Shown here piece after piece: positions 2,242-27,873 of a stretch of 64,000 nucleotides of DNA; positions within the stretch are counted from its first letter, which is position 1; every line of letters starts with the position of its first letter. Source of the DNA: a candidate division WWE3 bacterium RIFCSPHIGHO2_01_FULL_40_23 (GTDB lineage Bacteria; Patescibacteriota; WWE3; UBA101185; 2-01-FULL-41-18); NCBI GenBank assembly GCA_001772615.1, contig MEUZ01000007.1, forward strand, positions 25,146-89,145. The letters are read 5' to 3'. Both the position numbers and the translations under genes were made by a program. The notes under the pieces were generated by a model. That model did no database searches, had not been told where the DNA came from, and saw nothing but the letters and a program-made list of their open reading frames with translations.

Positions 2242-5200
2242 ATGAGAAAACTCATTGTATTTCTGACGGTCGTTTCGCTTCTACTCGGAACGTACGGCAT
2301 TTCGGACGCCGGCATCAAAGGCGCACCGAACCCACCGGGTTTTGTGGGCGCCACTGTCAACGGCAAAAACTGCGAGGTCCTGGTTTCAACCAGCGCGGAT
2401 AAAACCGTCTGGGCGCTAAACCCCGATCTTGCGGGTGAGGAAGTTCAAAACTGTGAGATCAAGATCAAGAAGGCCCGGGGTGAACAACTTGCGGTTGAAA
2501 CCGCAAACCGGTTCGTTCCGGGTGAGCTTCTGGTGAAGTTTACCCGCGGTTCAAACCGTCAGGGCAATCTCGACGTAATCAAGGGGAACGGAGCAAACGT
2601 ACTCAAAGAGATTGATCCCGGAAACGGCCTCTTTCATGTGTCCGTTGCCAAAGGGCAGGAAAGGGCAATCGCAAAAACACTTTTGACTAATCCGAATGTG
2701 GAGTATGCGGAGCCTAACTTCCTCACTCACAGCTTCTCAACACCCTCGTGGGGACAGGAAGCTATCGGCGCCCCGCAAGTTTGGGGTATTTACGACTGCG
2801 GGAACGCGGGAATTGCGGTTTTAGACACCGGCGTAGCGAAAAATCACCCGGAACTGCAAAATGTGGAAGCCGGGTGGGACTTTGTGAACGACGACCCCGA
2901 CGCTTCGGATGATGAAGGGCACGGCACTCATGTCGCATCAATTGCAGCGGGCGCAACGGTGGGCGTGTGCAGAAACGCACTTGTCATTCCGTATAAGGTG
3001 CTTAATTCGGAAGGATCCGGCACCTACGCAGATATCACGGCTGCTATCGTTTCCGCAACGCTTAACAGCCGGGTGAAGGTTCTTAACCTTTCACTTGGCG
3101 GCTCAAACTCTTCAGATACGATGCGGGAAGCTTTAAACCAGGCTGCTAACGCGGGAAAACTCATCTTCGTGGCAGCCGGCAATGATCTTGGTGAAGGCCC
3201 TTCGTACCCTGCGGCCTACACCTCTACAATTGCGATTAATGCCTTCGGCACAAACTTTGTGCTTCCGGTATGGAGCGCTCGGTTTAAGGGGGCAGAGTAC
3301 CGCTCGCTGTCGGCTCCCGGTGTAGGAATACTCGGTGCCAACTACACGGGCGGGCTGGTGAAGTACAGTGGAACCTCCATGGCCACTCCCTACGCATCTG
3401 GCGCGGCGGCTTACTTACTCTCCATCAACCCAAACCTTACGGCGGAGGAGGTCAAAAGCCTTCTTTTCAACAGCGCCGTAAAGCTGGGGGATGAGAAAGA
3501 GTACGGCCACGGAGCGCTTAACCTTGCCAATGCAGTCAAAATGACGACGGGCGTGAACCTGAATGTGCTTCCTCTTGAATGGAACACCCAATCGTGGCCT
3601 TCGCTCTTAACGATCGGGGAAGAAACAAGCATCCTTTCCTCCCTTAAAGACCCGGATGGAAACGTGGTCAGCGCAACCGCGCTTATCACCACTCCAATCG
3701 GAAGCGTTCTTGCCCCCATGAGCTTTGATTCCACCTTGAAGATGTGGAGGGCGGACTATATGCCCCTGGCTCTTGGGAGTTATTCGGCAACCGTGATTTC
3801 TGTCTCGGATGGAATCTCGGTCACATCCGGATTTGGGTACCAGGCCACATTCAATGTGGTATCTACAACCCTTCCTTCGGGATGGGAAATGCATGGACGT
3901 TTGCCTCAAGGCGGAAGTTACGTTGACTTTAACGTTGACGTCTCATCCGTGGAGCAGATCTACAGCCAGTGGAACGACATCAGCGCCTCCACAGACCAGG
4001 GAGTTGCTACCCACCTTGGGCGTTCTCTGGTACCTGAAAAGGTAAGGGTGGTTGGAAGTTGCCCTTTTGGAGAGTTTGGCGTCCAGTGGGCGTTTGACAC
4101 TCTCTCCGGGATTTACTACAGCTACTACGGCGTCTATGAAACTGCCAAGGAGCTCGACTGTCTCGATGGAATCGGAATTTTCGGCAATCACGGCGCTATC
4201 GGAGGGCAGCTTTTCGCAGTGGACCAAGGATCCAACCATTACAATGGATGGGATGCACGGCTCCACTCCTATGATCCGGTTTCGGGAAGGCACAACTGGA
4301 CAATCCATACCGAATACCATGCCGATGGGGCAGTCAGGATCTCGGAAGATGGTTTAAGGCTTTACATAGCGGGAGGCCCTTATGATCCTTTATGGTCGGT
4401 GAGCTCTGTAACCGGCGAAAGAATCTGGAGCTTCTTCCCAAACTCAGGATCCGTAATGGACTCCGAGCCCGTTGAGAAAGACGGAAAGGTCTATGTAAAA
4501 GTCAGCGGAAGCAGTTTAAGCATCAACAAGCTGTATGCTTTAAACGCTTATACCGGGGATGTTATCTGGCAGTTCAACCCCGACAGAGGGTTTTACGGCA
4601 GATCCGCTCCGACCCTTTCACCTGATGGTCAAACTGTAGTTGTTTGCGACGGCAGCTTTAATATGTACGCCGTAGATACAGCTACGGGAAACCGCATGTG
4701 GAAGACAGCGCTGGGCGGCACCAATTCAAGCTTTTGCGAAAGCGTCCCAGCGGTAACTGAAGAGTATGTCCTGATCTACACTGGCTCTGGAGTAGGCGGT
4801 GACACCAATAATTACCTTCACCTTCTTGACTTACAGACAGGTGAGATAATAGTAACCCGTGTAGTGGTGGATTATGGCTCGGTCGTTGCAAGCCCCGCCG
4901 TTTCTGGAGATCTGGTCTTTCTTACGGATTATCGGGGAAAAATCAGAGCCTATCTTCTGCCAACACTGGGGCTTGTGTGGGAGGATGTTGTTGATCCTTA
5001 TAATATCTCCTCCTGGCAAACCTCCGTGGCAATCGGAGAAGATGAAAACGGAAAATATGCCATCGTTTCGGCATCGGGGAATAACGGGTTCTTTAAAGCG
5101 TGGAAGTTTAGGGAAAGGGTAGAGCAGTCAACACCACCTACGTTGACGCCCATCCCAACCAACACGCCTACAGTTACCAGAACCCCCTCGCCAACAAGAA

Positions 5201-5526
5201 CTACAACTCCTATAGGCGGGGCAACCTTGACACCAACTCCTACACCCACGGCGTCAAACACATCGACTCCGTCGCAGACGCCAACACTGACCCCCACAAG
5301 CACGCCCTCGCCAACGGCGACACCCTGTCAGTGGGGCAGCAGCTGGAAGTGTGCCACCCCAACGGCATCAAAGACTTTCACGCCAACTGCAACCGGAACG
5401 GCGGGCAGCACTACCACGTCTACGGCGACCCCGTCGCAGACGCCAACGCTCACACCTACTGTGTTGCCTACGGCTCAGACAAATCCAAACACACATTGGA
5501 TCTTTCTGCCGTTTGTAATAAAGTAG
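2242..5526 (+). CDS. large secreted multidomain protein: signal peptide, subtilisin-like S8 serine peptidase, PQQ-like beta-propeller repeats, Thr/Pro-rich low-complexity tail
   Basis: N-term MRKLIVFLTVVSLLLGTYGISDA. Asp-His-Ser triad motifs DTGV, HGTHVASIAAG, GTSMATPYASGAAAY. Repeated YxxxxxTGxxxW motifs (YALNAYTGDVIWQF, YAVDTATGNRMWK, LLDLQTGEII). C-terminal TPTxTPT-rich ~130 aa. Confidence 0.8.
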   Translation: MRKLIVFLTVVSLLLGTYGISDAGIKGAPNPPGFVGATVNGKNCEVLVSTSADKTVWALNPDLAGEEVQNCEIKIKKARGEQLAVETANRFVPGELLVKFTRGSNRQGNLDVIKGNGANVLKEIDPGNGLFHVSVAKGQERAIAKTLLTNPNVEYAEPNFLTHSFSTPSWGQEAIGAPQVWGIYDCGNAGIAVLDTGVAKNHPELQNVEAGWDFVNDDPDASDDEGHGTHVASIAAGATVGVCRNALVIPYKVLNSEGSGTYADITAAIVSATLNSRVKVLNLSLGGSNSSDTMREALNQAANAGKLIFVAAGNDLGEGPSYPAAYTSTIAINAFGTNFVLPVWSARFKGAEYRSLSAPGVGILGANYTGGLVKYSGTSMATPYASGAAAYLLSINPNLTAEEVKSLLFNSAVKLGDEKEYGHGALNLANAVKMTTGVNLNVLPLEWNTQSWPSLLTIGEETSILSSLKDPDGNVVSATALITTPIGSVLAPMSFDSTLKMWRADYMPLALGSYSATVISVSDGISVTSGFGYQATFNVVSTTLPSGWEMHGRLPQGGSYVDFNVDVSSVEQIYSQWNDISASTDQGVATHLGRSLVPEKVRVVGSCPFGEFGVQWAFDTLSGIYYSYYGVYETAKELDCLDGIGIFGNHGAIGGQLFAVDQGSNHYNGWDARLHSYDPVSGRHNWTIHTEYHADGAVRISEDGLRLYIAGGPYDPLWSVSSVTGERIWSFFPNSGSVMDSEPVEKDGKVYVKVSGSSLSINKLYALNAYTGDVIWQFNPDRGFYGRSAPTLSPDGQTVVVCDGSFNMYAVDTATGNRMWKTALGGTNSSFCESVPAVTEEYVLIYTGSGVGGDTNNYLHLLDLQTGEIIVTRVVVDYGSVVASPAVSGDLVFLTDYRGKIRAYLLPTLGLVWEDVVDPYNISSWQTSVAIGEDENGKYAIVSASGNNGFFKAWKFRERVEQSTPPTLTPIPTNTPTVTRTPSPTRTTTPIGGATLTPTPTPTASNTSTPSQTPTLTPTSTPSPTATPCQWGSSWKCATPTASKTFTPTATGTAGSTTTSTATPSQTPTLTPTVLPTAQTNPNTHWIFLPFVIK

Positions 5527-10223: not shown

Positions 10224-12788
10224 CTACTCTCCCCTACTCCCAAGCACAACTTCACCTTCTATTTTACCGTCAAATGAAGGCCCTTCCTGCCTTTTTAAAG
10301 GCAAAGAACCTTGATCCCCCGTAACACTGCCCTCTTTCACACGGTTTTCCTCGGCAATTGCCATACCAAGGTCAAACTTTCTTTCAACCCACTGCCTAAT
10401 CCTTTCCTCAACATACTGACGGTCTTGCCCGTAGGTTTCCCTGCTTAACTCCTTTGCCTTTGCCCCATTATTAGTTAAATCAGTAATCCTTGGCATAGAT
10501 AAAGCCGAAAACGGCTTTGAGGTTTGACCTTCAATCATGAGCTTCAAATACATATGCTGCCTTTCAAGGGATATAAGATCATTTTCATCAAAAACCGGTG
10601 CGAATTCCTTTGCTAAAATCTCCGCGTCGGGTGCTCCAACGGCGAAAGAAATAATGGTTCCAACGTTTCCGAAAACCGCATTTAAAATTTCTTCAGGAAG
10701 CTGAAGCGTATATTGATGGGTCAGATGAAGACTTAGCCTGTATTTTCTTGCTTCCGAAAGAATAGACTCAAAACCTCCCGAAGCAAAGTTTTGAAATTCA
10801 TCAACAAAAAGATAAAAATCCCGTCTTTCGGCTTCAGGTATCCTCGCCCTCTGCAAAGCCACAAACTGCATTCTTGAAACAAGAAGTGATCCAAGAAGAT
10901 TCGCATTATCCTCACCTATTTTTCCAATTGATAAATTTATAAGAAAGATTTTTCCCGTGTTCATTATTTCATCAATCCTAACGGTTGATTTAGCTCTGCC
11001 TAAAATATTCCTGATGGTGGATGAAGAAAGAAATCTTCCAATCTTATTTTGGATAGGCGCTACAGCCTCTGTTAAAAGCTTTTGATTTCCTTTCATTTCT
11101 TTAAACTCTTTTTCCCAGAAATCTTTAATAACCGGATCCTTCACGTAATAAGTTATAAATTTTCTATAGTTGTCATCCATAAGAAGCCTTGTCAAACCAA
11201 GAAGCGTTGTACCCTCAACTTCAAGAAGAGTTAAAATACAAATATTTAAAAGGTATTCAAGCCTTGGTCCCCATGAAAATCCAAAATGCTGTTTTATTGC
11301 GGAGACAATTCCCGAAGCCATAAGGTTTTTCTGATCGGGATCCAAAACCTCAAGCATGTTCAGCGCGGGCGGTCTCTCCGAATCCGAAGGGTCAAAATAA
11401 ACAACGTCCTTCACCCTGTCATCAGGTATTGCCTCCAAAAGCTCGTCAATTAAAGTTCCGTGCGGATCCAAAACCCCAACTCCCTTTCCGTTTCTCATAT
11501 CCTGAATAATCATATTTCTGAAAAGCTGGGATTTTCCTGATCCTGTTTTCCCGATAGCATAAACGTGCCTTCTTCTATCTTCATCCTTAATTCCGAACTT
11601 AACTTCTTTATTTCTATAAGTTGTTATCCCAAACAAAGTGCTTCCTTCAGTGGGGATGTTTAACGGTGGCTCGCTTCTTTTCGCATATGACCAGGAAATA
11701 AGAGGTGTTTCTACCCCAGCCGCAGGCAAATGATATATTGACCCAAGCTCTTCAGTGTTAAATATATAACTCCCATCTTCTGAAAACTTTCTCAATCTGT
11801 ATGCATCAAAAAATTCACGGGAGTCATCATAATCTCCGGAAGCTATAAAACTGTTAAGATTTGCGGTTGAGAATTGTTTAAGAGACGCGATAACTGATCT
11901 TAATCTTAACTTCGCAACTTCAGTTGAATCAGCAATCGCAAGGACTCTGATAACACACTCGAAGCCCATTTTCGTAAGTTTGTTTTCAATTGCTTTTATT
12001 TCAAGCTCTTGGCCTGGAGACAATCTTGGAGGTAATGCGGCCGCGGTCCTGGCCGGAAACGCGGTAACCTCGGGCGGTGTTGAAATTCTTTTGATAACAT
12101 TAAAGAAGAGCTCCGACAGCTCCTTGCCTAAAGTTGAAACCAAACTACCGCCGGCTCTTTTAATAGTACCCTCTCTCACATCCGTCACATATTTGTAACC
12201 TTCTTCCTGCCAGACATCGGGAATAGGCCTTACCAAAAGTTGAAGCCACACCTGCTCATCCTCTTTTACCTCGGAAAGAGCGGATGTGATGGCCGATATC
12301 GGATCAACCTCAAAATCCTTAAAAGTCTTTATAGGAAAATAATAGTCTTTTGATAGCCTAACATCGGTTCCTAAAACAACTTTTCCTGTCCTATCAACAG
12401 ATTCAATATAATCTGGCACCTCAAAAATAACAGCGCGTGGATACTGTGCATAAATCTGACTTTCTACATAAGAATGAATGCTTTTTGGGACTACAGCGTA
12501 AAATTTAATACCTTTTGGGGAGGAAATTATTTCAAAAGAAAAATGCTCTTGTTCTTTAGGAGTTACTTTTAAAAGCCCGTGCAGAGATGCAAACATGTGC
12601 TCAGAAGCTATCGGGGCTGTCTGAAGATCAATATGCTCCACATCAAGCTCTTTAGGAACCTTAATCTCCAAAAAAACATTCTCAAATGTTTCGGTGTACC
12701 CACCCAAGCTTTTTCTGCGCAAAGATCTATATGCAAAAATTGTTGCGAACAAAACGATAATTGAAGGTAATAAAATATTTAATGGCAT
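10224..12788 (-). CDS. membrane-anchored P-loop ATPase of the VirD4/TraG/TraD type IV coupling protein (DUF87/HerA-FtsK-like) kind
   Basis: N-terminal TM; Walker A GKTGSGKS; Walker B-like YLFVDEFQNF; 854 aa. Confidence 0.6.
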   Translation of the reverse strand: MPLNILLPSIIVLFATIFAYRSLRRKSLGGYTETFENVFLEIKVPKELDVEHIDLQTAPIASEHMFASLHGLLKVTPKEQEHFSFEIISSPKGIKFYAVVPKSIHSYVESQIYAQYPRAVIFEVPDYIESVDRTGKVVLGTDVRLSKDYYFPIKTFKDFEVDPISAITSALSEVKEDEQVWLQLLVRPIPDVWQEEGYKYVTDVREGTIKRAGGSLVSTLGKELSELFFNVIKRISTPPEVTAFPARTAAALPPRLSPGQELEIKAIENKLTKMGFECVIRVLAIADSTEVAKLRLRSVIASLKQFSTANLNSFIASGDYDDSREFFDAYRLRKFSEDGSYIFNTEELGSIYHLPAAGVETPLISWSYAKRSEPPLNIPTEGSTLFGITTYRNKEVKFGIKDEDRRRHVYAIGKTGSGKSQLFRNMIIQDMRNGKGVGVLDPHGTLIDELLEAIPDDRVKDVVYFDPSDSERPPALNMLEVLDPDQKNLMASGIVSAIKQHFGFSWGPRLEYLLNICILTLLEVEGTTLLGLTRLLMDDNYRKFITYYVKDPVIKDFWEKEFKEMKGNQKLLTEAVAPIQNKIGRFLSSSTIRNILGRAKSTVRIDEIMNTGKIFLINLSIGKIGEDNANLLGSLLVSRMQFVALQRARIPEAERRDFYLFVDEFQNFASGGFESILSEARKYRLSLHLTHQYTLQLPEEILNAVFGNVGTIISFAVGAPDAEILAKEFAPVFDENDLISLERQHMYLKLMIEGQTSKPFSALSMPRITDLTNNGAKAKELSRETYGQDRQYVEERIRQWVERKFDLGMAIAEENRVKEGSVTGDQGSLPLKRQEGPSFDGKIEGEVVLGSRGE

Positions 12789-15773: not shown

Positions 15774-16469
15774 TTATCTTCCAATTTCAAACTGTTTGGG
15801 CAACTTGGATTCAAAAGATACAGGGGCACCACCGTTTGGGTGTTTAAATTCTATTCTACCGGCATGCAACATGAGTCTCTTAAAGCGCTTAATGTTTTCA
15901 TTATAAATACGCGCCGGCGCGTAAAGCGGATCCGAAACTACGGGAAAACCTGCTGCGGCGAGGTGGACTCTTATCTGGTGCGTCCTTCCTGTGTGAGGAT
16001 TTACTTTCAAAAGCGTATAAATGTGATCGTCCAAGCTTTTTTCTTTAACCTTTTCAAACTCCGTATATGCTTCTTTTCCTTCTTTGTGCACGGAAAATCT
16101 CATCCGGTTCCTTGGATTTCTCCCAATAGGGGCGTCAACATTAAATTTATCCTCCCCTACTCTTCCATTCACCAAAGCAAAATAAAACTTTTTCACTTTT
16201 CTTTTCTTAAATTGATTTCGCAAAGATTTTAATGACCTCTCATTTTTCGCGATTATTAAAACACCCGAAGTTTCTTTATCAAGCCTATGCACAATGCCCA
16301 TCCTTTCAAGACCTTCTTCAATTCCAAAAATCCCACGGTTTTCCTCCAAAAGCCCTTCTAAGGTGTTATTTTTATCTTTTTGGGTTTCTGACCTGTCTAC
16401 AACCAGACCTGAAGGTTTATCAAAAACGAGGATATCATTATCCTCATACAGAACCGGAAATTTGATCAT
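15774..16469 (-). CDS. RluA-family pseudouridine synthase
   Basis: HRLDKETSGVLIIAKN catalytic Asp motif. Confidence 0.8.
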   Translation of the reverse strand: MIKFPVLYEDNDILVFDKPSGLVVDRSETQKDKNNTLEGLLEENRGIFGIEEGLERMGIVHRLDKETSGVLIIAKNERSLKSLRNQFKKRKVKKFYFALVNGRVGEDKFNVDAPIGRNPRNRMRFSVHKEGKEAYTEFEKVKEKSLDDHIYTLLKVNPHTGRTHQIRVHLAAAGFPVVSDPLYAPARIYNENIKRFKRLMLHAGRIEFKHPNGGAPVSFESKLPKQFEIGR

Positions 16470-16845
16470 TCTGAACCTCTTCTAAAATCCTTCTCACCGT
16501 AGCTGCAACATCCCCAGGGTTAATCTCCGATTTAACCAGATAGCCCGAGGCGCCAAGGTTGTACCCTTCTTTAATAATTGAATCTCTTCCAAGATTTGTT
16601 AAAAGAACAACGGGTTTACCTTTTAAAATCACATCTTTTTTAATTCGTGAAAGTATTTCAAGACCGTCTCTTTTTGGAAGCATAATATCAAGAAGCATTA
16701 AATCCCATTTCCCCTCCATTGCTTTCACTAAACCGTCTTCCCCATCAGAAGACTCAATCACATCATAATCCGTTTTTAATACTTCCGAGTAAACTTCTCT
16801 AATATTTGCTTCGTCTTCAACAATAAGAATTACTTTTTTTCCCAT
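16444..16845 (-). CDS. stand-alone response regulator receiver (CheY-like)
   Basis: KVILIVEDE...DLMLLDIMLP...LLTNLG. Confidence 0.8.
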   Translation of the reverse strand: MGKKVILIVEDEANIREVYSEVLKTDYDVIESSDGEDGLVKAMEGKWDLMLLDIMLPKRDGLEILSRIKKDVILKGKPVVLLTNLGRDSIIKEGYNLGASGYLVKSEINPGDVAATVRRILEEVQNDQISGSV

Positions 16846-16901
16846 AACTTCTCTCCCTGCAAAACCCGCAGCCCAGGATGATTAAACTTATCAAAACTCC
16901 T

Positions 16902-17279
16902 TTATTTTAAGAATTGCCCGACCTCGGTAACTATCCTATCCGGGGTTATCTGGGACTTTATCAAATATCCATCCGCAGAAGTCTTAAAGGCCTCATTTAT
17001 GATTGACTCATGTCCAAGGTTTGTAAGAAGTATAACAGGTTTAAACTTGAGCCTGACATTTTCTTTAACTGCACGCAGTATATGAAGCCCGTCCTCACCG
17101 GGAAGCATAATATCAAGAAGCATTAAATCCCACTCATCATCAAATGCTCTTTTTAAGCCGTCAACCCCATCATTAGCCTCCAGTACACGATAACCCGCTT
17201 CCCTTAAAACTTCGGCGTAAACCATCCGTATTTCATCTTCATCCTCTATTAAAATTACTGTTTTCCCTTGATCCTCCAA
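16902..17279 (-). CDS. stand-alone response regulator receiver (CheY-like), paralog of 16444..16845
   Basis: TVILIEDEDEIRMVYAE...DLMLLDIMLPGEDG. Confidence 0.8.
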   Translation of the reverse strand: MEDQGKTVILIEDEDEIRMVYAEVLREAGYRVLEANDGVDGLKRAFDDEWDLMLLDIMLPGEDGLHILRAVKENVRLKFKPVILLTNLGHESIINEAFKTSADGYLIKSQITPDRIVTEVGQFLK

Positions 17280-17301
17280 GTAAATTCACCTCCTTAAACA
17301 C

Positions 17302-19320
17302 TTATACAGCCCTGACTGTGAAGTAAAATGTAGAGCCTTTGCCGGGCCCTTCGCTGTAAACCCCTACCTTGCCGCCCATAGCCTCCACAATTGATTTTAC
17401 AATATATAAACCTAAACCAGTACCCCCCGATTCCGCAGCCGTCACAAAAGAGTTATCAAGCCTGCCAAACTTGTGAAAAAGTTTTGGAAGGTCATCCTTT
17501 GATATCCCTTTTCCCGAATCGGCAATGGAAACCTTAACTTCCTTCCCGGAAGCTTCCGCAATGATATGAACAAAACCTGTGTCACAATATTTAAAAGCAT
17601 TACCTAAAAGATTAATAATGACTTCTCTTAATTTGTCTTCATCCGCCCTGACTTTTGGAAGATTGTTATCAATAAGAAGCTTAAAATCAAGACCCTTTTG
17701 CTCCGCCTTAATTCTAAAATCGGAAGCAATTTCAGCTAAAACAGAAGAGAGATCAACCTGCGTCGGATGAAGTTCAAGCTTGCCCTGCTCCATCCTTGAT
17801 ATATCAAGCATGTCATGAATAAGCTTTATCATTCTTTCGGTTCCGGCGTAAGCTTTTTCCACATACTCGCCTTGTTTTGGAGTAAGATCCCCTCCTTTTT
17901 TATTTTCAAGCATCCAAAGATAGTTTTTTATAATGGTCATGGGCGTTCTTAACTCGTGTGAAGCAATTGAAATAAACTCTTCTCTTGCCTTTTCGGCCTT
18001 AATCTCATCAGTAACATCCGAAATAATCACAACATAAACATTTAAATTCTTTTCAACAATGACTTTAGAAGCAGTTAAGTTAACATACCTCTCTCTTCCG
18101 TCAGGTCTTTTCAATACAAGATTGGTTAGTTTAGTTCCCGATTTAAACTCAAGCAGACTCTTTATTGAATCACCTGTAATCTTTTGATTTTTAGCGTCAA
18201 AAAGATTGACAATTTTACCAAAGAATTTTCCTGAAGCATCCTGCTCGGTAAAAGTTGTTAAACTTTGTGCGGCTCTGTTAAACAAAAGAATTTTTGTTTC
18301 GGCGTCACAAACAATTACAGCCTCCGTTATGTTATATAAAAGGGCTTCAGCCTTCCTCTTTTCCTGTATAAGTTCAAGATTTTTCTTATAAATCTGCTCG
18401 TTTATTCTTGATAAGAGTTGATCCCTTTCATGAAGCTTTATGTTTGCTTCGTGAAGCTCTTCCTCCCTTTGCCTTAAAAGCAAAGAAGGATTTGTAAAAA
18501 TCTCAAGCGGGACTACATCAATATTTAATGCATTTGTCCCAAGCGTGACTAGGGTGAGCATAGTAAGATACATAAAATCAACGAAGTTCCCATTATAAAA
18601 AGTACCGTAAGTTGTCTGATGGGCAAAAAACATGTCGGCAAGGAAAGAAACAACTAGACCAAACGAAAGCATTAAAACCGAAAATCTAATCTCCCCTTTT
18701 AGATGGGAGAGAGCTAGGGCGTCAACTATGAGAATTAGAATTAAGAGCACTACATCCCAAAGGGGATATGAGATGTCAAAAAAAAGTTTGATTACATTTG
18801 TGCTTAATTCAAATGTTGACCCTCTGGCAAAGACAAATAGCAGATAGTAAGAAATGGTTACAACAAGTATCGGGATAACGAGAATTATTACCCGTGTTAC
18901 TTTGTTCTTAAAAGAAATGCGAAGGCCTATTCCTCTTGCTAAATACATGATGCCAAATGACCAGAAAAACATGGTTAAAATGAAGGAAGCGTCCGCAAAA
19001 GAAGGATAAGGAACTTCTACATTTAAGATGAGGTTATAAAAGGACCAGGTGGACTCCCCTACTCCCCACGCAATAAGGCCTAAAGAGAAATAAACGACGG
19101 CTCTTATTAAGTTTTTGTTTGATTTATCGGTTCTGTTAATTAGCCTTATTAAGCTGTAAATACCACCGAAAAATGGAACCAAACCATAAAAGAAGGCAAA
19201 CCAGTAGTTTAAGGGGTCGTCTGTCGTACCTAAAATCTGGATATATGACCACCAAAAGGCAAGGAAGATGAAAGAGGCAATTACAAGTTTTGAGGCAAAA
19301 TTAAACTTAACATCTTTCAT
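17302..19320 (-). CDS. sensor histidine kinase: N-terminal ~7-8 TM module, PAS, HisKA, HATPase_c
   Basis: H-box ASHELRTPM; G-box GTGLGLYIVKSIVEAMGG; PAS-like region. N-terminal ~280 aa paralogous to the ORFs at 19658 and 22403. Confidence 0.85.
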   Translation of the reverse strand: MKDVKFNFASKLVIASFIFLAFWWSYIQILGTTDDPLNYWFAFFYGLVPFFGGIYSLIRLINRTDKSNKNLIRAVVYFSLGLIAWGVGESTWSFYNLILNVEVPYPSFADASFILTMFFWSFGIMYLARGIGLRISFKNKVTRVIILVIPILVVTISYYLLFVFARGSTFELSTNVIKLFFDISYPLWDVVLLILILIVDALALSHLKGEIRFSVLMLSFGLVVSFLADMFFAHQTTYGTFYNGNFVDFMYLTMLTLVTLGTNALNIDVVPLEIFTNPSLLLRQREEELHEANIKLHERDQLLSRINEQIYKKNLELIQEKRKAEALLYNITEAVIVCDAETKILLFNRAAQSLTTFTEQDASGKFFGKIVNLFDAKNQKITGDSIKSLLEFKSGTKLTNLVLKRPDGRERYVNLTASKVIVEKNLNVYVVIISDVTDEIKAEKAREEFISIASHELRTPMTIIKNYLWMLENKKGGDLTPKQGEYVEKAYAGTERMIKLIHDMLDISRMEQGKLELHPTQVDLSSVLAEIASDFRIKAEQKGLDFKLLIDNNLPKVRADEDKLREVIINLLGNAFKYCDTGFVHIIAEASGKEVKVSIADSGKGISKDDLPKLFHKFGRLDNSFVTAAESGGTGLGLYIVKSIVEAMGGKVGVYSEGPGKGSTFYFTVRAV

Positions 19321-19363
19321 TGGATTTATTCTAAGTTACTTTGTGGGTAAATTCTAGTAAAAA

Positions 19364-19648
19364 CTACCTTAAAATGTCAGGAAGAATCTCCTTCTGGTCC
19401 CCTACAACTGCCGAAACTGCCTCTCTGCAAACTTCCACCGATACTCTTCCGAATAACGAGGCGTACTGCTTTACAAGACCTTCAAGGACAGCTTTCCCAT
19501 CACCTGTAATCGTTGCTGTTTTGCCATCAGATGAAATATTAAGTCCGGGAACCTTATTCGCCTCCTCTATTGCTACAGGTCCTATGATCAACTCCTGCTG
19601 GGATATTATAGATTTTACAAGATTTTCAAACTGCCCATTCATACACAA
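19364..19648 (-). CDS. small hypothetical protein (~92 aa)
   Basis: ORF packed between the membrane-module paralog and the HK. Confidence 0.4.
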   Translation of the reverse strand: MCMNGQFENLVKSIISQQELIIGPVAIEEANKVPGLNISSDGKTATITGDGKAVLEGLVKQYASLFGRVSVEVCREAVSAVVGDQKEILPDILR

Positions 19649-19657
19649 ACGACTAAA

Positions 19658-20482
19658 TTAACTAGAGCCACTCCTAACACTATCGGAATACTTGACATCT
19701 AAAGCATTCGTGCCATAAGTTAATAAGAACATAGCAGAAGCGAATAATAAGTCTACAAATCCCCCATTGTAAAAAGTTTCAACAGTAGATTGATACGATA
19801 AACCCATATCAGCGAAGTAATTAACAACGAAACCCAAAAGTATTAAGGTTATTGGAAACTTGAACCTTCCACCAAGAAAACCAAATGAAAGACCGTAAAC
19901 CAGTAGTACTAGGGTTAATAGTATTACATCCCAAATAGGATAGAGCAAATCAAAAAACAATTTTAAATATTCAGAAGAAAGATCAATCGTAGAGTCCCTC
20001 GCAACAACGTAAAGCAAGTAATATGATGCGGATATTACTAAAAAAGGAACAACTAAGAGAAGAAGCTTACCTCTAACATTCCTCAAAGAGAACTTAATCC
20101 CAGTTGCTTTTGAAAGGTTTATAACACCCATAGACCATAGTGGCCAGCTCAAAATAAAACTAGCGTCAGCTAGCGATGGGTAAGGAATTTCTACGTTTAA
20201 TCCCAAAATGTAATAAGACCATATCGTCTCTCCAATTCCCCAAGTTATCAAACCTAATGAAAGATAGAGAACTGCGCTGCCCATTGCACTCTTAAAAGAG
20301 CCCCATTTTCTTGATAGAAATAACCCATTAATACCCCCAAATAGAGGAACAAGACCGTAGGCAAATACAAACCAGTAATTGACGGGAGAATCGGTTGTTC
20401 TCAAAAACTGAATATACAACCACCAAATAACCAAAAGAATATAAGAAGCAAGAAGAAGCTTAGTTGCTTTACTCTCAATCAC
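19658..20482 (-). CDS. stand-alone multi-TM membrane module, paralog of the HK N-terminal domain
   Basis: Shares WW..YIQ, NYWF.F.YGLVP.FGG, NVE(I/V)PYPS(L/F)ADASFIL, TFYNG.FVD motifs with the HK N-terminus. Confidence 0.7.
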   Translation of the reverse strand: MIESKATKLLLASYILLVIWWLYIQFLRTTDSPVNYWFVFAYGLVPLFGGINGLFLSRKWGSFKSAMGSAVLYLSLGLITWGIGETIWSYYILGLNVEIPYPSLADASFILSWPLWSMGVINLSKATGIKFSLRNVRGKLLLLVVPFLVISASYYLLYVVARDSTIDLSSEYLKLFFDLLYPIWDVILLTLVLLVYGLSFGFLGGRFKFPITLILLGFVVNYFADMGLSYQSTVETFYNGGFVDLLFASAMFLLTYGTNALDVKYSDSVRSGSS

Positions 20483-21290
20483 TTTTTTTGAAACCTGAGG
20501 CTAAAATTATACTTTCGTATCCAATCTCCTTATGCTCAGGTACTTTCTGTACCATTATATTCACAGTCGACATGTCAAAGTCAAGGTTAACAAACAAGTT
20601 ATTAAAATCACCCTCTCTAAGGTTCGCACAGGGAAAAAATCTTTTACCTACCTTATAATACCTACAATCCCTCAAGGCGGCGGTAACAAAAAAACCTCCT
20701 GGTTTTAATAAGGACAATATATTAACCATGTAGTCATGCCAAACCTCTCTGGAATTGGTTGCGCTATCGGCACAATAACATGAGAGCATAAAACTATAGT
20801 GACTCAAACCATTCCCTAATAACGGAGCTTTATTACTTGCATCGCATAATATGTATTTTGTGATCTTTTGCCTAGTCAGCTCCTCTCTTCTTTCTATATC
20901 AGAATCAGTTGGTTCTAGGTTACCTTCATACTTCAAGATAAGTTCTGTGAAAGGCTTCCAGTTATGCATCCCGACCTCTTTCTGCTGCCATTTCTTTATC
21001 TCCGAGAGATTGGTTTTCAGATAATCCGCAACATGTATTTCCGCCACGTAAGGGCTCAGAGGAAGAATATGATGAAGAGTCGGTCCCGCACCAAATTCCA
21101 ATGCTATAGGGTTCTCCCTAATCTTCTTAAATTCATCCACAAGGAATCTTAAAGTATATCTTTCATCTTGCTCAACATAACCATAATAGTCCCTCAGGTA
21201 ATCAGAGGGTGTCCACTTATCAAACCCTGACAGAGTCAACTTATTCGTCCTCAAAATGGGTGATATTTTACTTCTTAAAGGTTTAGACAT
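20475..21290 (-). CDS. NNMT/PNMT/TEMT-family SAM-dependent N-methyltransferase
   Basis: Matches human NNMT blocks: PSDYLRDYYGY (vs PRDYLEKYYKF), EFGAGPTLHHIL..HVADY...EIKKWQQKE (vs DIGSGPTIYQLL..VVTDY...ELEKWLKKE), LLKPGGFFVTAALRDCRYYKVGKRFF (vs [26 protein letters not shown]). Start at internal Met MSKPL (21290), 2 nt from upstream stop. Confidence 0.75.
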   Translation of the reverse strand: MSKPLRSKISPILRTNKLTLSGFDKWTPSDYLRDYYGYVEQDERYTLRFLVDEFKKIRENPIALEFGAGPTLHHILPLSPYVAEIHVADYLKTNLSEIKKWQQKEVGMHNWKPFTELILKYEGNLEPTDSDIERREELTRQKITKYILCDASNKAPLLGNGLSHYSFMLSCYCADSATNSREVWHDYMVNILSLLKPGGFFVTAALRDCRYYKVGKRFFPCANLREGDFNNLFVNLDFDMSTVNIMVQKVPEHKEIGYESIILASGFKKSD

Positions 21291-22389
21291 ACACAACCCC
21301 CGGTACAGCAAACCCGTTAAAGGGAGCGGCATAAGCTGTCGTATAAGCCGCACAGTTCATAATAAACACTTTATCTCCAATCTCAACACATCCAAGATCA
21401 GTGCTCTCCGAAACTACGTCAACGCTGTCACAAGACGGCCCTGCGATAGTCACAGCGTTCACATCCTTGTTTCCAAGTACCTTAAATTCATATTTATATC
21501 CTTGGACCGTTTCCATCAGAGCGTTAAAAACTCCGGCATCAATATAAACCCATCTCTCTGAACCTCTTTTAGCAATGCCTACAACTGTGCTTACCATAAT
21601 ACCAGAGTCACCTATCAAACCTCTCCCAGGTTCGATTGACACTCTCAGAATCTTGGATCTGTCAAAATATTTATCCAAAGATCGAGTGATAACCTTCCCA
21701 ATCTCCCTCATTGACGGAACATTTAAAGTTTGCCTAATTGGCAAACCGCCACCTAGACTTAGGAAACCTAACTGTGTGCGTTTTCCAAAATTCTGAAACC
21801 AAAACTCAGAGCTTAATTTTATAGCGCTCTCCCAGCTACTCTTATCGCGACACTGTGATCCCACGTGAAACGTTAACCCATAGACAATAAGTTTCCTTTC
21901 GTTACAATAAGAAATTAACTCTTTTGCCTCCCGAACAGTTACTCCGAATTTCTTTGTTAATGGCCAGTCACTACCTTTATTCTCTACTTCCAATCTCAGC
22001 ACAAGCTTGGCACCTGGGAAATATCTTAATACCTTATCAACTTCATCAAATGAATCGAAAGCAAGGATGTTTATATCTTCATTTCTAAGTACCCTTATGA
22101 AAGAGGGAGTTTTAATAGTGTGCATGCATATAATTTTTTTTGAGGATACACCCATTTTCTTAAGCACTTTCAATTCACCCTCAGATGCAATCTCAAAGCC
22201 TGATCCTTCTCGATCAAGAATTCTAACTATCTCCGAATCGTGATTAGCTTTCAAGGCGTAGTATACCTCCATCCCGGGCAAAGCCGTGCTAAGAGTTTTA
22301 AACTTCTTACTTATGCTTCTAATATCAATTGCTAAAAAAGGGGTTTCCTCCGTTTTAGACAAACTTCTCAGTGTTTTGGTTATGCGCAT
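21283..22389 (-). CDS. Orn/Lys/Arg/DAP decarboxylase, fold-type III PLP (eukaryotic ODC-like)
   Basis: VYYALKANHD (PLP-Lys), GFEIASEGE, GGGLP, IEPGRGLIG, AGPSCDSVD (catalytic Cys), AAYTTAYAAPFNGF. Confidence 0.8.
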   Translation of the reverse strand: MRITKTLRSLSKTEETPFLAIDIRSISKKFKTLSTALPGMEVYYALKANHDSEIVRILDREGSGFEIASEGELKVLKKMGVSSKKIICMHTIKTPSFIRVLRNEDINILAFDSFDEVDKVLRYFPGAKLVLRLEVENKGSDWPLTKKFGVTVREAKELISYCNERKLIVYGLTFHVGSQCRDKSSWESAIKLSSEFWFQNFGKRTQLGFLSLGGGLPIRQTLNVPSMREIGKVITRSLDKYFDRSKILRVSIEPGRGLIGDSGIMVSTVVGIAKRGSERWVYIDAGVFNALMETVQGYKYEFKVLGNKDVNAVTIAGPSCDSVDVVSESTDLGCVEIGDKVFIMNCAAYTTAYAAPFNGFAVPGVVYV

Positions 22390-22402
22390 GGATCTCCTAA
22401 AT

Positions 22403-23368
22403 TTATAGGAATGATATCACAGAAATAATTAGACAAAAACCTGGAAAAATATATGAGAAGAAATTATCACTCTCTATAACATTAAGACAGAACTCCCTTA
22501 ATGTTTGGATTCTGTAAACATAATTAACTCCATTGAATCTCTCTTCCGTGCTGGCCAAGGGAAACCAATAATCAACGGTTTCACAAATTCCGAGAAAAAG
22601 TAGAAATGCGTAGCTAACATAAAAAAGATCCACATAACAACCATTAAAGTAAGTATTATTCATACTAGTATTAAAAAACAACAGATCTCCAATAAACAAA
22701 AATAAAAACGCTGAAGTTAAAAGAAACTTTGCTTTTTTATTTAAGTGGTCTACCAAATAGTTAGATGCAAATATAAATAAAGTTAGTATCAAAATTAAAA
22801 TCAGAATGTCCATTGTAACGTAATAATAGTTTAAAGTTAACCTCAAAGTTTCCAGCTCAAGAGGAGATTTTGAAAATTTAATAGCAGTCGTAAGTACAAC
22901 CGGGGAAACTGACACAAAAACACTTAATATTCTTAAGGTTCCAATTACGCAAAATTTTAACTTCTCGCTCTTAAAAAACTTGTTGGAAAGTAACTTTCCT
23001 AAGCCTATAAAAGTTGCGGTATAGCTAAAAGAATAAAATACATCAGCGTATGATGGGAAAGGCACCTCTATACTTAAGAAGATGTTATAGACAGACCACA
23101 CGACGTTACCTAAACCCAGTAGAAGCAATCCAACACCGAGCAGTACTAATGCAGTTTTTCGTACCTTATTATAGGTATAAACCTTTGAAGTCCTACTTAT
23201 ATGGTAGACAACCAAAAAAACAGCTAAGACCAAAAACAGGGCCCAAAAAAAACCGAACAGGCTGTTATTCAACCCTCCCCTACTCCCTGAAAGATAGAGG
23301 GAGAGCCACCAGACCAAAATGGCTAAGTACAAACCGGTAATAAAATTTATACTGTTTTTAATTGTCAT
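22403..23368 (-). CDS. stand-alone multi-TM membrane module, third paralog of the HK N-terminal domain
   Basis: Shares SIEVPFPSYADV and TYFNGCYVDLFY blocks with the other two copies. Confidence 0.65.
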   Translation of the reverse strand: MTIKNSINFITGLYLAILVWWLSLYLSGSRGGLNNSLFGFFWALFLVLAVFLVVYHISRTSKVYTYNKVRKTALVLLGVGLLLLGLGNVVWSVYNIFLSIEVPFPSYADVFYSFSYTATFIGLGKLLSNKFFKSEKLKFCVIGTLRILSVFVSVSPVVLTTAIKFSKSPLELETLRLTLNYYYVTMDILILILILTLFIFASNYLVDHLNKKAKFLLTSAFLFLFIGDLLFFNTSMNNTYFNGCYVDLFYVSYAFLLFLGICETVDYWFPLASTEERFNGVNYVYRIQTLREFCLNVIESDNFFSYIFPGFCLIISVISFL

Positions 23369-23726
23369 GGTCGGGCTAGGATTATAATTATCTTATACAT
23401 AATAATCATAGTTAATGCAACTCTCTTCGTACTCTCTAAAACAGCTTAAACACCCTACTAAACTCCAGAGTTCAAACGTCCTTACTTCTGCCACCCGCCG
23501 CCCGCCTGTTGGCGGATGGCGGAGTCACACAGGGACGGAATAATCGAGTAATTGAGACTCAAATCACATTCAAATACTTGCAATAACCTCACAACCATTG
23601 GCCTATAAATAAATACTATTAGAAGTAAAAACTCTTTACATTATAATAATCGGTATGATAATAATTAATACAACTAGAACAAAGGTTGCAACCACTCTAG
23701 TAAACCGTGCAAAAAGGAGAGATAAA

Positions 23727-23918
23727 ATGTGCGGACCTGATTTTTCCACCTATCCTTTCGCTGAAGATCCTCCCGATCAAACACCGGAGGAAATCGCGAA
23801 ACTGTTTGAGGAGTCCTCCGCCGAAGAACCCACAGAAGACGGTATCGATTGGACCAGCGAGGAAGAGAACGAAGGCTGTAGTCCATATCCCGACTTCCGA
23901 TGGGTTTATTATGACTAG
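23727..23918 (+). CDS. small highly acidic protein (64 aa) with aromatic-rich C-terminus (FRWVYYD)
   Basis: Strong RBS AAGGAGAG 8 nt upstream of ATG; GC-rich coding relative to genome. Confidence 0.5.
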   Translation: MCGPDFSTYPFAEDPPDQTPEEIAKLFEESSAEEPTEDGIDWTSEEENEGCSPYPDFRWVYYD

Positions 23919-23972
23919 TGGAAGGCCCCGCAAAAAAATCACGCCCTAAGGCACAGGAGGTGAGACAACAAA

Positions 23973-24155
23973 ATGTATATCGATCCGGAGGACGAAGAGG
24001 ATCATTCTGATGATGATCGGGATGACTGGAAGGACCGCTTCAACGAGGGATTAAGGTTTGCATCCCTGGCTGATGTAGAAGAGGTCGGGGGAGGCGGAAC
24101 GGACGATGAATGGGAAACCTATTACATCGCCGATCAGTACGCGAGGCAGGGCTAA
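23973..24155 (+). CDS. small highly acidic protein (60 aa) with aromatic-rich C-terminus (WETYYIADQY)
   Basis: RBS AGGAGGTGA upstream; GC-rich. Confidence 0.5.
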   Translation: MYIDPEDEEDHSDDDRDDWKDRFNEGLRFASLADVEEVGGGGTDDEWETYYIADQYARQG

Positions 24156-24222
24156 AGCCCGCAACTTGCCAGGTTGGAACCCTTCTCTAAAGATTGATGG
24201 GAGAAGGGTTCCAGCAAATATT

Positions 24223-25221
24223 ATGATGCCGTCTGCAGCTGAAGTCAAAGAAATATTACTCTTTGACACAATTAATGAGGACCAAAATATTGCTCACTTA
24301 ATGGAGCATTGCCTTGCCGCCCACATTCATATTAATAATCCTAAAGCTCACTCAAGCGGTGGCTTCCATGCGGGTACGAATCCGAAAGGAATGTACTTGA
24401 TCTTTGAAAAAGAGGATTTTGTCAAATTTGACACGTTTCCAGACCTTGCACCCTTTATAGACCATCAGAAAAAAAGGTTGTATTTGGAGAGCATAGAAAG
24501 CATCCTCGTAGGCTCAAAAATAGTTGAGATATACGTAAGGCAGAACTGCTTAACATATAAAGAGGTTCTTGACAGATTTGACAAGTTCCTCAAATTGGAT
24601 ACTGCTGCAATAATAAAATCTTTTAAAAAAATTTACGCTACTAAAATAAAAATAAGCTCTATCAGTCAAACTTTGAATTTTAAGCCTATAACAACGTCGC
24701 AAAAGCAAGTTCATAGTATAAAAGTTCCGAAGTTTCAGCCTCTGCTTGACATATTTGAAATCTCTATTATGCTTCCCATGACTTTGGAATCACTTGCCTA
24801 CTGCGAAGCAATAAAGCTTTTGGCTTCAATGAACTTTTCCCCGATCCTTGCCCAGAAAACACTATTACACACAAATAGCGGAGGTGCCTCCATGTCTGTG
24901 AACAGCCTCTTTATTACGTACTCGTATAAAACTCTTAAAGGAGACGGGGAAAATACTAAAAATGTCTTCTGGGATCTTATAAAAAACGCACGGCATCTGG
25001 ATATTTACGTCAGCATTTGGAAAGAGCGAGAGTCCGAAAAAGCAAGAAAGACTTGGGAAGAGAATATCTTAAGGAGGGAACATATTTTCTCACTATTAAG
25101 ATTTGGCCACATTCTTACAGAAAAAGAAATAAAAGAAGTGGACAGCCAAAAAATCGTTAAACTTCACCATGAGGTAATTTCAAACCCCAACAGGTTTGTT
25201 ATTGAGCTGACTGACTTCTAA
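24223..25221 (+). CDS. hypothetical protein with inverted zinc motif HxxEH (AHLMEHCLAAH), possibly a divergent M16-like subunit; start uncertain (24106 or 24223)
   Basis: HLMEH resembles the M16 HxxEH; no other M16 blocks confirmed. Confidence 0.4.
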   Translation: MMPSAAEVKEILLFDTINEDQNIAHLMEHCLAAHIHINNPKAHSSGGFHAGTNPKGMYLIFEKEDFVKFDTFPDLAPFIDHQKKRLYLESIESILVGSKIVEIYVRQNCLTYKEVLDRFDKFLKLDTAAIIKSFKKIYATKIKISSISQTLNFKPITTSQKQVHSIKVPKFQPLLDIFEISIMLPMTLESLAYCEAIKLLASMNFSPILAQKTLLHTNSGGASMSVNSLFITYSYKTLKGDGENTKNVFWDLIKNARHLDIYVSIWKERESEKARKTWEENILRREHIFSLLRFGHILTEKEIKEVDSQKIVKLHHEVISNPNRFVIELTDF

Positions 25222-26610: not shown

Positions 26611-27873
26611 TTATAAAGAGAGAAGGCTGTTAACTTCCTCTTCCTTTACCCTTCCGACAACGGCAAGATTAAGACCATCACTCACAAAAACCTCGGAAAC
26701 AACTTCGGAAATATCAGAAAGATTAACCTTTTCTATTTCCTTAACATAATCCTCATAAGACAGTACTTTTTTGGAAAGAAGTTCCTGTTCAGTCAGAAAT
26801 GAATTCATATCATGATGGCTCTCAAACTTTAACGCAAGGAGCCCTTTTAAATGCTCTTTACTGCGCCTAAGCTCTTCCTTTTCCACTCCCTCCGACTTTA
26901 TCTTGTTTACTTCTTTTATAGTTGCATCAATAGCTTGGAGAAATTTCTCATTATTAACACCAGCCGCTATGAAAAAGGCTCCGGTATCCATCAAAGATCT
27001 TGATGACGCTTTAATGTAATATGCAAGCCCAAGCTCCGTTCTTATCTTTTGGAACAAGCGCGAGGAAATACCGCCTCCAAGAATCATAGATACAAGCTTA
27101 AGAGTTATTCTTTTCTTGTCATCCTTTGGATAGCCTCTGAAGCCAAAACACAAATGGGACTGCTCCGTTTCTCTTGATTCAACTATTAACTTCGGTTCTT
27201 TCTGAACTCCGGAAAGAGGCTCGTAACTTCTTAACTTCCCATCGGAAACTTTCAAGAAAGCTTCCTTTAAAAGACCTAAAGCCTGTTCTTCATCAAACTT
27301 TCCCGAAAGCCCTATCACCATATTTGATGATTTATAAAAATCGTCTTGGTAAGAGGTAAAATCGTCGCGTGAAAATGAGGAAACTGTCTCTTTAGTACCA
27401 CATATAAACCTTCCAAGCGGGTGGTTTGGCCACATTACCTTCTCCAAAAGAATCCCGACTTTATATTCCGGCATGTCATTGTTCATATTTATCTCTTCAA
27501 TAATTACCCCTTTTTCCTTTTCTATTTCTTGCGGCAGATAAAGCGGGTGAAAAAGCATCTGATCTAAAACATAAACAATATCTTTAAGATGTGATGACTC
27601 CGCCCTGATGTAATACTCAATATGTTCATTTCCTGTCCCTGCGTTCCAGTCCCCGCCGAAGCCTTCCACAAACTTAGACAGCTCAAACTGCGATTTAAAG
27701 GCTTCACTTCCCTTAAAAGCCATGTGCTCAAGGAAATGCGCTATGCCGTTATTTTTCTCGTTTTCATATCTGGAACCAGCTTTCACATAAATAGAAAGAT
27801 TTACTGATTTTGAATCTTTTGAGGGTACTAGAAGAATCCTGATATTATTTTTCAAGGTAATTTTTTTATACAT
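26611..27873 (-). CDS. M16 (pitrilysin/insulinase) family zinc peptidase
   Basis: GIAHFLEHMAFKGSE HxxEH motif; 420 aa typical M16B. Confidence 0.85.
   Translation of the reverse strand: MYKKITLKNNIRILLVPSKDSKSVNLSIYVKAGSRYENEKNNGIAHFLEHMAFKGSEAFKSQFELSKFVEGFGGDWNAGTGNEHIEYYIRAESSHLKDIVYVLDQMLFHPLYLPQEIEKEKGVIIEEINMNNDMPEYKVGILLEKVMWPNHPLGRFICGTKETVSSFSRDDFTSYQDDFYKSSNMVIGLSGKFDEEQALGLLKEAFLKVSDGKLRSYEPLSGVQKEPKLIVESRETEQSHLCFGFRGYPKDDKKRITLKLVSMILGGGISSRLFQKIRTELGLAYYIKASSRSLMDTGAFFIAAGVNNEKFLQAIDATIKEVNKIKSEGVEKEELRRSKEHLKGLLALKFESHHDMNSFLTEQELLSKKVLSYEDYVKEIEKVNLSDISEVVSEVFVSDGLNLAVVGRVKEEEVNSLLSL

Follow-up and report, generated by a model that had tools for sequence, protein, structure and literature searches.

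Two kinds of described system lie closest to the locus analysed here, namely kinases with membrane sensor domains and three-component systems, and both are already known. LiaF-LiaSR, UhpC-UhpB-UhpA and BceAB-BceRS are systems with an accessory membrane protein. Small partners and enzyme-made signals have precedents as well: in Anabaena sensory rhodopsin a helical-bundle receptor relays to a small soluble transducer encoded alongside it, and in CqsA-CqsS a small amine-containing signal is the product of a pyridoxal phosphate (PLP)-dependent enzyme, whose gene adjoins that of a membrane kinase, and is sensed by the membrane part of this kinase. A preprint describes VraTSR, too, as a three-component system with an accessory membrane protein (bioRxiv 10.1101/2025.01.23.634444). 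The DNA considered here, called the window below, is a stretch of 64,000 nucleotides (nt) from the candidate division WWE3 bacterium RIFCSPHIGHO2_01_FULL_40_23 (GenBank assembly GCA_001772615.1, contig MEUZ01000007.1, positions 25,146 to 89,145 of the forward strand). At 16444-23368 it carries nine minus-strand genes by count (eight are listed here), tightly packed or overlapping, which probably form a single operon. Three of them contain the same membrane module, and the analysis leans slightly towards the view that this module represents an unnamed membrane sensor family that has its own adaptor, here called S94, and feeds a histidine kinase.

First of all, the three modules are homologous. 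The sequence-only reading, made earlier from the letters of this DNA, had described one multi-helix membrane module occurring three times, once fused to a histidine kinase and twice stand-alone, and this description holds. The kinase-fused module (18511-19320, minus strand) forms amino acids (aa) 1-270 of the kinase; copy B (19658-20482, minus strand) is a stand-alone eight-helix module of 274 aa, belonging to the widespread S94-paired type; and copy C (22403-23368, minus strand), the first gene of the cluster, is a stand-alone divergent module of 321 aa. A family hidden Markov model (HMM), built without the sequences of the window, matches the three with E values of 6e-80, 1.9e-123 and 1.2e-23, respectively (scaled to a million sequences), each copy covering HMM positions of about 18-282 of 298, and the scan of the window finds exactly three module copies and one S94. 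Failure to align over the whole length had been named as one result that would refute this description; the profile matches all three copies end to end. By BLASTP, the N-terminus of the kinase and copy B align over 260 aa with 51% identity (E 2e-76), the kinase and copy C over 137 aa with 34% identity (E 9e-8), and copies B and C over a 33-aa segment only, around the PYPSxAD block (E 1e-4); the MAFFT alignment of the three copies is collinear with 48 invariant columns, and the homologous module measures about 265 aa in all three genes. The motifs quoted in the sequence-only reading are exact in the kinase and in copy B, but copy C deviates from them: it lacks YIQ and NYWF, has SIEVPFPSYAD where N(V/I)E(V/I)P(Y/F)PSxAD was expected, and has TYFNGCYVD in place of T(F/Y)YNGx(F/Y)VD. 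Copy C also bears a C-terminal extension of about 55 aa with one extra hydrophobic segment. A hypothetical protein from a candidate division WWE3 bacterium is 100% identical to copy B, which places the window in a genome of the Patescibacteria.

The copies differ in age and kinship from what their closeness on the DNA might suggest. A neighbour-joining tree built from 104 module instances groups the kinase-fused copy of the window with the kinase-fused copies of two other loci (L022 and L035; related loci and retrieved proteins are cited by L and P numbers) and copy C with the stand-alone genes that precede the decarboxylase in both of these loci; copy B falls among the widespread S94-linked type. 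Moreover, the order C, decarboxylase, B, S94, fused kinase and receiver(s) recurs in L022 and L035, and L035 has two receivers behind its fused kinase, as the window does. Both loci lack the methyltransferase of the NNMT type; L035 carries one of the SET type in that slot. Orthologous fused kinases are found in L022, L035 and P0135. Since the paralog types regroup with those of L022 and L035 and the gene arrangement recurs, the triplication is old and maintained; judging from the tree, the three copies are three old paralog types with orthologs in two other genomes and not a recent local triplication, a point that had been missed in the sequence-only reading.

The kinase itself is located at 17302-19320. 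Its cytoplasmic part (17302-18510, minus strand) consists of a charged helical linker (aa about 275-325), a PAS domain (aa 325-438), a HisKA domain (aa 445-513) and an HATPase_c domain (aa 560-670), and the E values of the three domains in Pfam are 7e-8, 1.7e-18 and 1.7e-25, respectively. The H-box SHELRTP is present in the translation, and with HisKA, HATPase_c and H-box together the protein is predicted to be a class I two-component histidine kinase. Downstream lie two single-domain response regulators on the minus strand, the first, consisting of a receiver only, at 16902-17279 (Pfam Response_reg 8.5e-20) and the second at 16444-16845 (Pfam Response_reg 4.3e-20).

The partner gene S94 (19364-19648, minus strand) had been overlooked in the sequence-only reading. 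It encodes a soluble protein of about 92-94 aa, whose start in the public annotation is the ATG at 19642; 15 of its positions are invariant, one of them a Cys, and no match to it was found in Pfam, PDB sequences, PADLOC or PHROGs. In the window, copy B and S94 share a reading frame and are separated by TAA plus 15 nt (19642-19660). Two genes arranged like this in the window make up one fused protein in other genomes. The importance of the pair becomes clear from the neighbourhoods of 82 non-redundant related loci, in which the module is followed by S94 in 76 cases (directly downstream in 68, fused in 8). A histidine kinase comes directly after S94 in 52/82 loci, and 6 further loci stop at the contig end before it. 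These kinases are mostly core-only (about 270-290 aa) or of about 450-500 aa with a soluble N-terminal part, which is a GAF domain in the kinase of L003, and they have 0-1 hydrophobic segments. Because most of them lack a membrane sensor of their own, the module-S94 pair is their obvious input. The module had been called the functional core of the locus in view of its three copies; it is the B-type module together with its partner of about 92 aa and the kinase that forms a conserved core in about 80 related loci.

S94 is proposed to be a cytoplasmic adaptor between module and kinase, and natural fusions and structure prediction support this indirectly. The model of a natural module-S94 fusion, P0034, built on seven natural fusions (paired sequences), has a pLDDT of 91.5 and a pTM of 0.89, equal to the module alone, and its 14-residue linker is disordered. 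As the model stays confident despite the disordered linker, it suggests that S94 docks at a defined place on the cytoplasmic face of the module. In the Foldseek search with this fusion model, most of the signal came from the membrane part. Some genomes have the pair, or the fusion gene, two or three times in tandem (L005:1239-3471, and in L044, L066, L076 and L080), so that local amplification of the pair is common. In one lineage, a prepilin peptidase, several pilin-like genes and PilM lie directly behind the module-S94-kinase core (L003:10685-16481), which makes type IV pili a candidate target of regulation there.

The AlphaFold model of the module, made from a 61-sequence alignment (pLDDT 91, pTM 0.89), contains eight long helices, at residues 5-27, 33-59, 66-94, 104-126, 136-161, 172-199, 208-233 and 242-259. 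Across the family, the loops assigned to the cytoplasm contain 4.07 Lys+Arg and 0.20 Asp+Glu, and those assigned to the outside 1.79 Lys+Arg and 3.75 Asp+Glu. Cytoplasmic domains occur at either end of the module, the kinase C-terminally and helix-turn-helix (HTH) or NB-ARC domains N-terminally. From the charge bias of the loops and the cytoplasmic domains fused to both ends, it follows that both termini of the module lie inside (N-in/C-in). The number of helices and the place of the PYPSxAD loop had been left to topology prediction, which now gives eight helices and an extracytoplasmic loop between helices 3 and 4, with the Asp of the motif opening helix 4.

Over 314 domains, the best-conserved positions (numbered as in copy B) are G77, G84, Y91, P100-Y-P-S103, D106, D178, Y181, P182, D225, F228 and D244. 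Except for G77, which is near the middle of the membrane in helix 3, all of them lie either in the outside loop joining helices 3 and 4 or in the outer 40% or so of helices 3, 4, 6, 7 and 8. The motif of the outer half thus comprises the PYPS loop, one Asp each from the outer ends of helices 4 and 8, and the sequences Asp-x-x-Tyr-Pro (helix 6) and Asp-x-x-Phe (helix 7). No His or Lys is found among the positions conserved in at least 85% of the 314 domains, helix 7 included. The outer-face motif is retained at 7-8 of 8 positions in all paralog types (8/8 in the kinase-fused type, 7/8 in copy C). On the other side of the membrane, a cytoplasmic-loop motif made of W60, G61, G68, G128, S199 and G205 scores 5.9/6 in S94-linked copies, 2/6 in the kinase-fused type and 0/6 in the C type.

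This conservation bears on the simplest rival explanation, in which the module is a mere membrane anchor or dimerisation scaffold for the kinase, NTPases and regulators and senses nothing. A dimerising scaffold would be compatible with tandem module-module proteins and with the presence of three paralogs in a single operon; a scaffold, however, needs neither the near-invariant Asp, Tyr, Pro and Ser of the outer face, present in 96-98% of the 314 domains and in all three paralogs, nor a dedicated conserved partner protein, and the explanation is considered very improbable.

Further support for a sensor comes from the proteins to which the module is fused. In an exhaustive profile search over 1.84 billion cluster representatives, the module family comprises 5157 representatives at E <= 0.001, 1811 at E <= 1e-10 and 300 at E <= 1e-30. 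Among 296 retrieved proteins, the module stands alone in 243, is fused to S94 in 18 and forms a tandem of two modules in 7. The survey of domain fusions that had been called for shows, in addition, a fusion to a PAS kinase (P0135), a TrmB/MarR winged helix ahead of one or two modules (P0124, P0188, L082), NB-ARC/NACHT NTPases carrying a C-terminal module (P0154, P0160, P0250), a HisKA_7TM domain with the module (P0138) and a MazG-like domain with the module (P0140). The fusion partners of known role are all signalling or regulatory ones, with the MazG-like domain excepted. In NB-ARC NTPases, the C-terminus is the usual place of the sensor domain.

A one-genome-per-species scan gave 223 loci, of which 80 were fetched, and these are labelled nearly without exception as Patescibacteria, to which the family is almost confined in the fetched loci: WWE3, Roizman-, Levy-, Davies- and Saccharibacteria, Parcubacteria groups and Peribacteria. 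NB-ARC and HTH fusions homologous to the retrieved ones occur inside Patescibacteria loci too. NB-ARC NTPase-module genes are located at L028:1353-3452, L029:1371-3428, L032:2389-4734, L043:1459-3639 and L053:2381-4708, 2-5 kb upstream of the module-S94-kinase core in each of the five loci, and therefore one genome can wire the same module to two signalling outputs.

As to known families, the earlier statement that the module cannot be placed in any described sensor family is borne out. Pfam and NCBIfam made no assignment for the first 270 aa or so of the kinase, for copies B and C or for S94, and gave no consistent match for 61 members of the family even at E <= 10; in Pfam, none of these members is matched by the models for MASE1/2/4/5, MHYT, 7TMR-DISM_7TM, 5TMR-LYT or HisKA_7TM. 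A lead towards MASE3 was followed, in that the full kinase scores 178 bits against the NCBIfam model NF047874 (MASE3_PAS_HK, cut-off 560) with an alignment extending back to aa 111. It was rejected because the match vanishes once the module is scanned by itself: the module alone and 60 relatives give zero matches to MASE3 (PF17159 / NF047874; Pfam and NCBIfam, E <= 10). HisKA_7TM was set aside for another reason, being in P0138 a separate domain at aa 8-204, with the module at aa 214-484. PADLOC and PHROGs contained nothing for the module or S94, and the literature searched gave no account of the module family or of the gene cluster.

Nor is a known structure at hand. The family profile has 0 matches to PDB sequences at E <= 10, and the Foldseek search with one copy, which had been proposed earlier, matched no solved structure: there is none in PDB at E <= 0.001, and the interpretable matches include no transporter. 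The matches to G-protein-coupled receptors (GPCRs) and rhodopsins in PDB (best E 0.0099, TM 0.4-0.5, rmsd 7-13 A) were dismissed as generic resemblance between helical bundles, and an identity as seven-helix receptor was likewise rejected, the module having eight helices and no conserved Lys. The nearest fold is that of a predicted structure in BFVD, a Tupanvirus (giant-virus) protein annotated as lysoplasmalogenase (E 3.1e-4, TM 0.63/0.67, rmsd 5.1 A, 262 columns, 16% identity), the structures compared being predictions on both sides.

From this neighbour arises a second rival explanation, in which the module, as a relative of YhhN/TMEM86, works as a membrane enzyme on a lipid or envelope molecule of the outer leaflet and the two-component system regulates it or answers its product. 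YhhN proteins have eight helices in N-in/C-in topology and conserve, within the membrane, Lys, Asp, His, Asp and Tyr (PMC9052158). The module shares the eight helices and the topology with them, and its own conserved set contains four Asp and a Tyr, at positions that may differ from those of YhhN, with no Lys or His at the 85% level. Against this stand the Pfam model PF07947 (YhhN), which matches none of the 61 members at E <= 10, and profile comparison by hhalign, in which the module reaches a probability of 0.17% with E. coli YhhN and of 0.58% with an alignment of 4 YhhN sequences, the YhhN profile being shallow. Moreover, the Lys and His that are conserved in YhhN have no conserved counterpart, and an enzyme would leave unexplained both the obligatory linkage to S94 and kinase and the fusions to NTPases and DNA-binding domains. 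An enzyme is accordingly considered improbable, and YhhN/TMEM86, with which a remote link is conceivable, was retained as a fold-level neighbour only and not as the family of the module.

The reading as a sensor raises the question of what might be sensed, and here the genes between copies B and C are informative. The gene at 21283-22389 (minus strand) encodes a PLP-dependent decarboxylase of Lys/Orn decarboxylase-like type (Pfam Orn_Arg_deC_N 1.7e-49), in whose translation the motifs YALKAN, GGGLP and PSCDS are present; its best matches among PDB sequences are the Lys/Orn decarboxylase 5gjm (3.5e-53) and then eukaryotic ornithine decarboxylases. The gene at 20475-21353 (minus strand), whose true start is probably the ATG at 21290, encodes a small-molecule amine N-methyltransferase of the NNMT/PNMT/TEMT type (Pfam NNMT_PNMT_TEMT 3.3e-36; NCBIfam GntF-like 2.9e-31). 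It is nearest to the nicotinamide, indolethylamine and phenylethanolamine N-methyltransferases (PDB NNMT/INMT/PNMT, 1e-25 to 1e-12).

Such enzymes recur beside the module. A methyltransferase lies directly upstream of it in 35/82 loci, of the NNMT type in 16 and of the SET type in 19, the two types never occurring together (0/82). A decarboxylase is near the module in 19/82 loci, in 14 of them with a methyltransferase as well; at least 1.5 kb of upstream sequence was present in 70/82 loci. In L010:5288-6928 a Lys/Orn-type decarboxylase is fused to a SET domain (Pfam), and the same fusion is suggested for L011, L075 and L079 by homology to the SET region of L010. This recurrent link between a diamine decarboxylase and an N-methyltransferase had been overlooked in the sequence-only reading. 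A single slot is shared by two unrelated methyltransferases, of which the SET-type one also occurs fused to the decarboxylase; this points to a methylated decarboxylation product, presumably an N-methylated diamine. In Roizmanbacteria-type loci, a 116-aa protein with no Pfam match is encoded between receiver and decarboxylase (L001:5740-6090, and L008), and the window has no counterpart of it.

In aminergic receptors, an Asp and aromatic residues of the outer half are the classic means of binding a protonated or quaternary amine, and the Asp/aromatic cluster at the outer face of the module is a plausible site for a methylated-diamine cation. Taken alone, the proposal that the ligand is an N-methylated diamine is nevertheless graded as doubtful.

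The same enzymes give rise to a third rival explanation, in which the module serves as a small transporter or channel to move their cationic product, e.g., as a diamine exporter, and S94 and the kinase monitor transport, as in BceAB-BceS or DctA-DcuS. Acidic residues inside the outer half of the membrane, the amine-producing enzymes adjoining the module in 35-40% of loci and tandem module-module proteins, which suggest a dimeric pore-like unit, are compatible with it. So is a possible 4+4 internal repeat, helices 1-4 aligning in register with helices 5-8 in hhalign (E85...PYPSxAD against D225...FYNGxVD), which is weak and not significant (E 0.099, probability 0.6%). On the other hand, the module has no transporter-family match in Pfam, NCBIfam, PDB sequences or folds, where a fit to a well-known permease family would have refuted the sequence-only reading; about half of the loci (42/82) lack the enzymes; C-terminal fusion to NB-ARC and a position behind DNA-binding domains are typical of sensors and not of carriers; and the conserved charges gather on one face instead of along a path crossing the membrane. 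A transporter is consequently judged unlikely.

For the sensor, the following mechanism is proposed. The outer acidic and aromatic site would bind an external cationic ligand. In the B type, the cytoplasmic face of the module would work with S94, which may relay its state to the mostly soluble kinase encoded by the next gene; in the kinase-fused type, the signal would pass from helix 8 through the helical linker and the PAS domain to the kinase core. The window would combine both routes with paralog C, which retains the outer site but not the cytoplasmic motif, and the three paralogs may pair as mixed dimers. The kinase would then phosphorylate the two receiver-only response regulators, and the ligand, for which N-methylated diamines are the likeliest class, would come from the two enzymes whose genes lie directly upstream, the Lys/Orn decarboxylase and the N-methyltransferase.

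Several points weigh against this reading. The function of all family members is deduced from sequence and gene context, the outer "pocket" is placed by the positions of the predicted helices and is not a measured cavity, and no more than 7 paired sequences underlie the P0034 fusion model. The closest fold neighbour carries the annotation of an enzyme, lysoplasmalogenase, and fusions of transporter-like domains to kinases are known as well. Several NB-ARC-fused copies retain the cytoplasmic motif, so it is not exclusive to the partnership with S94. Finally, 42/82 loci have neither decarboxylase nor methyltransferase, and the ligand therefore need not be self-made or an amine. In the evidence set out above, the homology of the copies, the logic of the topology, the gene order, the fusions and the conservation of residues are the observed part; ligand binding, the role of S94, the identity of the ligand and the mixed dimers are proposals.

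The remaining observations concern the transcription signals and other genes of the window. Promoter-like sites occur at chance level, and terminator-like sites are about twice as frequent as the shuffled mean (12 against 6.6, standard deviation 2.4); the Rfam scan finds a single tRNA, distant from the locus. Just upstream of the operon, at 23655-24155, are two small plus-strand open reading frames (ORFs) of 87 and 60 aa, very acidic and rich in Asp, Glu, Trp and Tyr, which may not be real genes; the 87-aa one has no Pfam match. A 371-aa protein (24106-25221) with no Pfam match contains HLMEH, corresponding to the HxxEH pattern of M16-type zinc peptidases, and about 1.4 kb away a 420-aa protein (26611-27873) contains HFLEH. 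A protein of 1094 aa encoded at 2242-5526 comprises a fervidolysin-like prodomain, a subtilase domain (S8) and a beta-propeller of the PQQ type; the G+C content around it is 50-52%, compared with about 39% in the remaining window, and this stretch may be acquired DNA. An 854-aa protein (10224-12788), with weak matches to the TrwB/VirD4 coupling protein and to HerA-type ATPases, may be a DNA-transfer or secretion ATPase.

Patescibacteria have very small genomes and few regulators. Candidate-phyla-radiation (CPR) bacteria make up a large part of bacterial diversity, and most of them live attached to other cells; to our knowledge, very little has been learnt about what they sense. That module, partner and kinase occur together almost constantly in such reduced genomes strongly suggests that the system is important for their way of life. 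Compared with the libraries and papers searched, what is new is the sensor family, the adaptor, the Patescibacteria-centred spread and the link to diamine methylation. Two new protein families are defined, one a membrane sensor (5157 cluster representatives), the other a cytoplasmic adaptor, and the recurrent pairing of a diamine decarboxylase with one or the other of two unrelated N-methyltransferases suggests a small-molecule pathway, which could be reconstituted in E. coli. A bolder proposal, which as a whole is speculative and has little probability at present, is that Patescibacteria share a dedicated system of eight-helix receptor and 92-aa adaptor for detecting an N-methylated diamine made by the decarboxylase and the interchangeable methyltransferases, i.e., a polyamine-derived signal from cell to cell or from symbiont to host. 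If true, bacterial autoinducers would gain a new chemical class, and its receptor would have a new fold.

Compared with known systems, the likeness to CqsA-CqsS is one of arrangement, by analogy: a gene for a PLP-dependent enzyme stands beside a membrane kinase. Unlike in that system, the decarboxylase is found in only about a quarter of the module loci and self-production of the signal is putative, and the enzymes and the receptor fold are unrelated. Anabaena sensory rhodopsin and the animal aminergic receptors may serve as a further analogy, the former for the adjacent small soluble partner and the latter for the Asp and aromatic residues of the outer half; in contrast to rhodopsins and GPCRs, the module has eight helices instead of seven and no conserved Lys, the fold matches are weak (E at least 0.01), and common descent is unsupported. 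With YhhN/TMEM86 (PF07947) the module shares its size of about 260 aa, the eight helices and the N-in/C-in topology, and both have conserved intramembrane Asp and Tyr, though perhaps not at equivalent positions; it differs in having no Pfam match, profile signal, or conserved Lys and His. YhhN proteins are enzymes that are not known to be linked to kinases.

Like the MASE1-type, MASE3, MHYT, 7TMR-DISM, 5TMR-LYT and HisKA_7TM domains, the module is a multi-helix N-terminal membrane domain of a kinase, is combined with varied outputs and conserves polar residues within the membrane. It differs from them in lacking sequence matches to their models, in that its commonest form is stand-alone with a small cytoplasmic partner, in its NB-ARC fusions and in its centre in the Patescibacteria. 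VraT-VraSR, LiaF-LiaSR, UhpC-UhpB-UhpA and BceAB-BceRS resemble it in another respect, as a separate membrane protein stands beside a sensing-poor kinase in a conserved operon; an accessory membrane protein encoded with the kinase in this way, the mark of a three-component system, is found here too, with module and S94 together in 76 of the 82 loci and the kinase next in 52. The module is not homologous to VraT, LiaF, UhpC or BceAB, and unlike theirs, its system places an extra soluble protein of about 92 aa between the membrane protein and an often fully soluble kinase.

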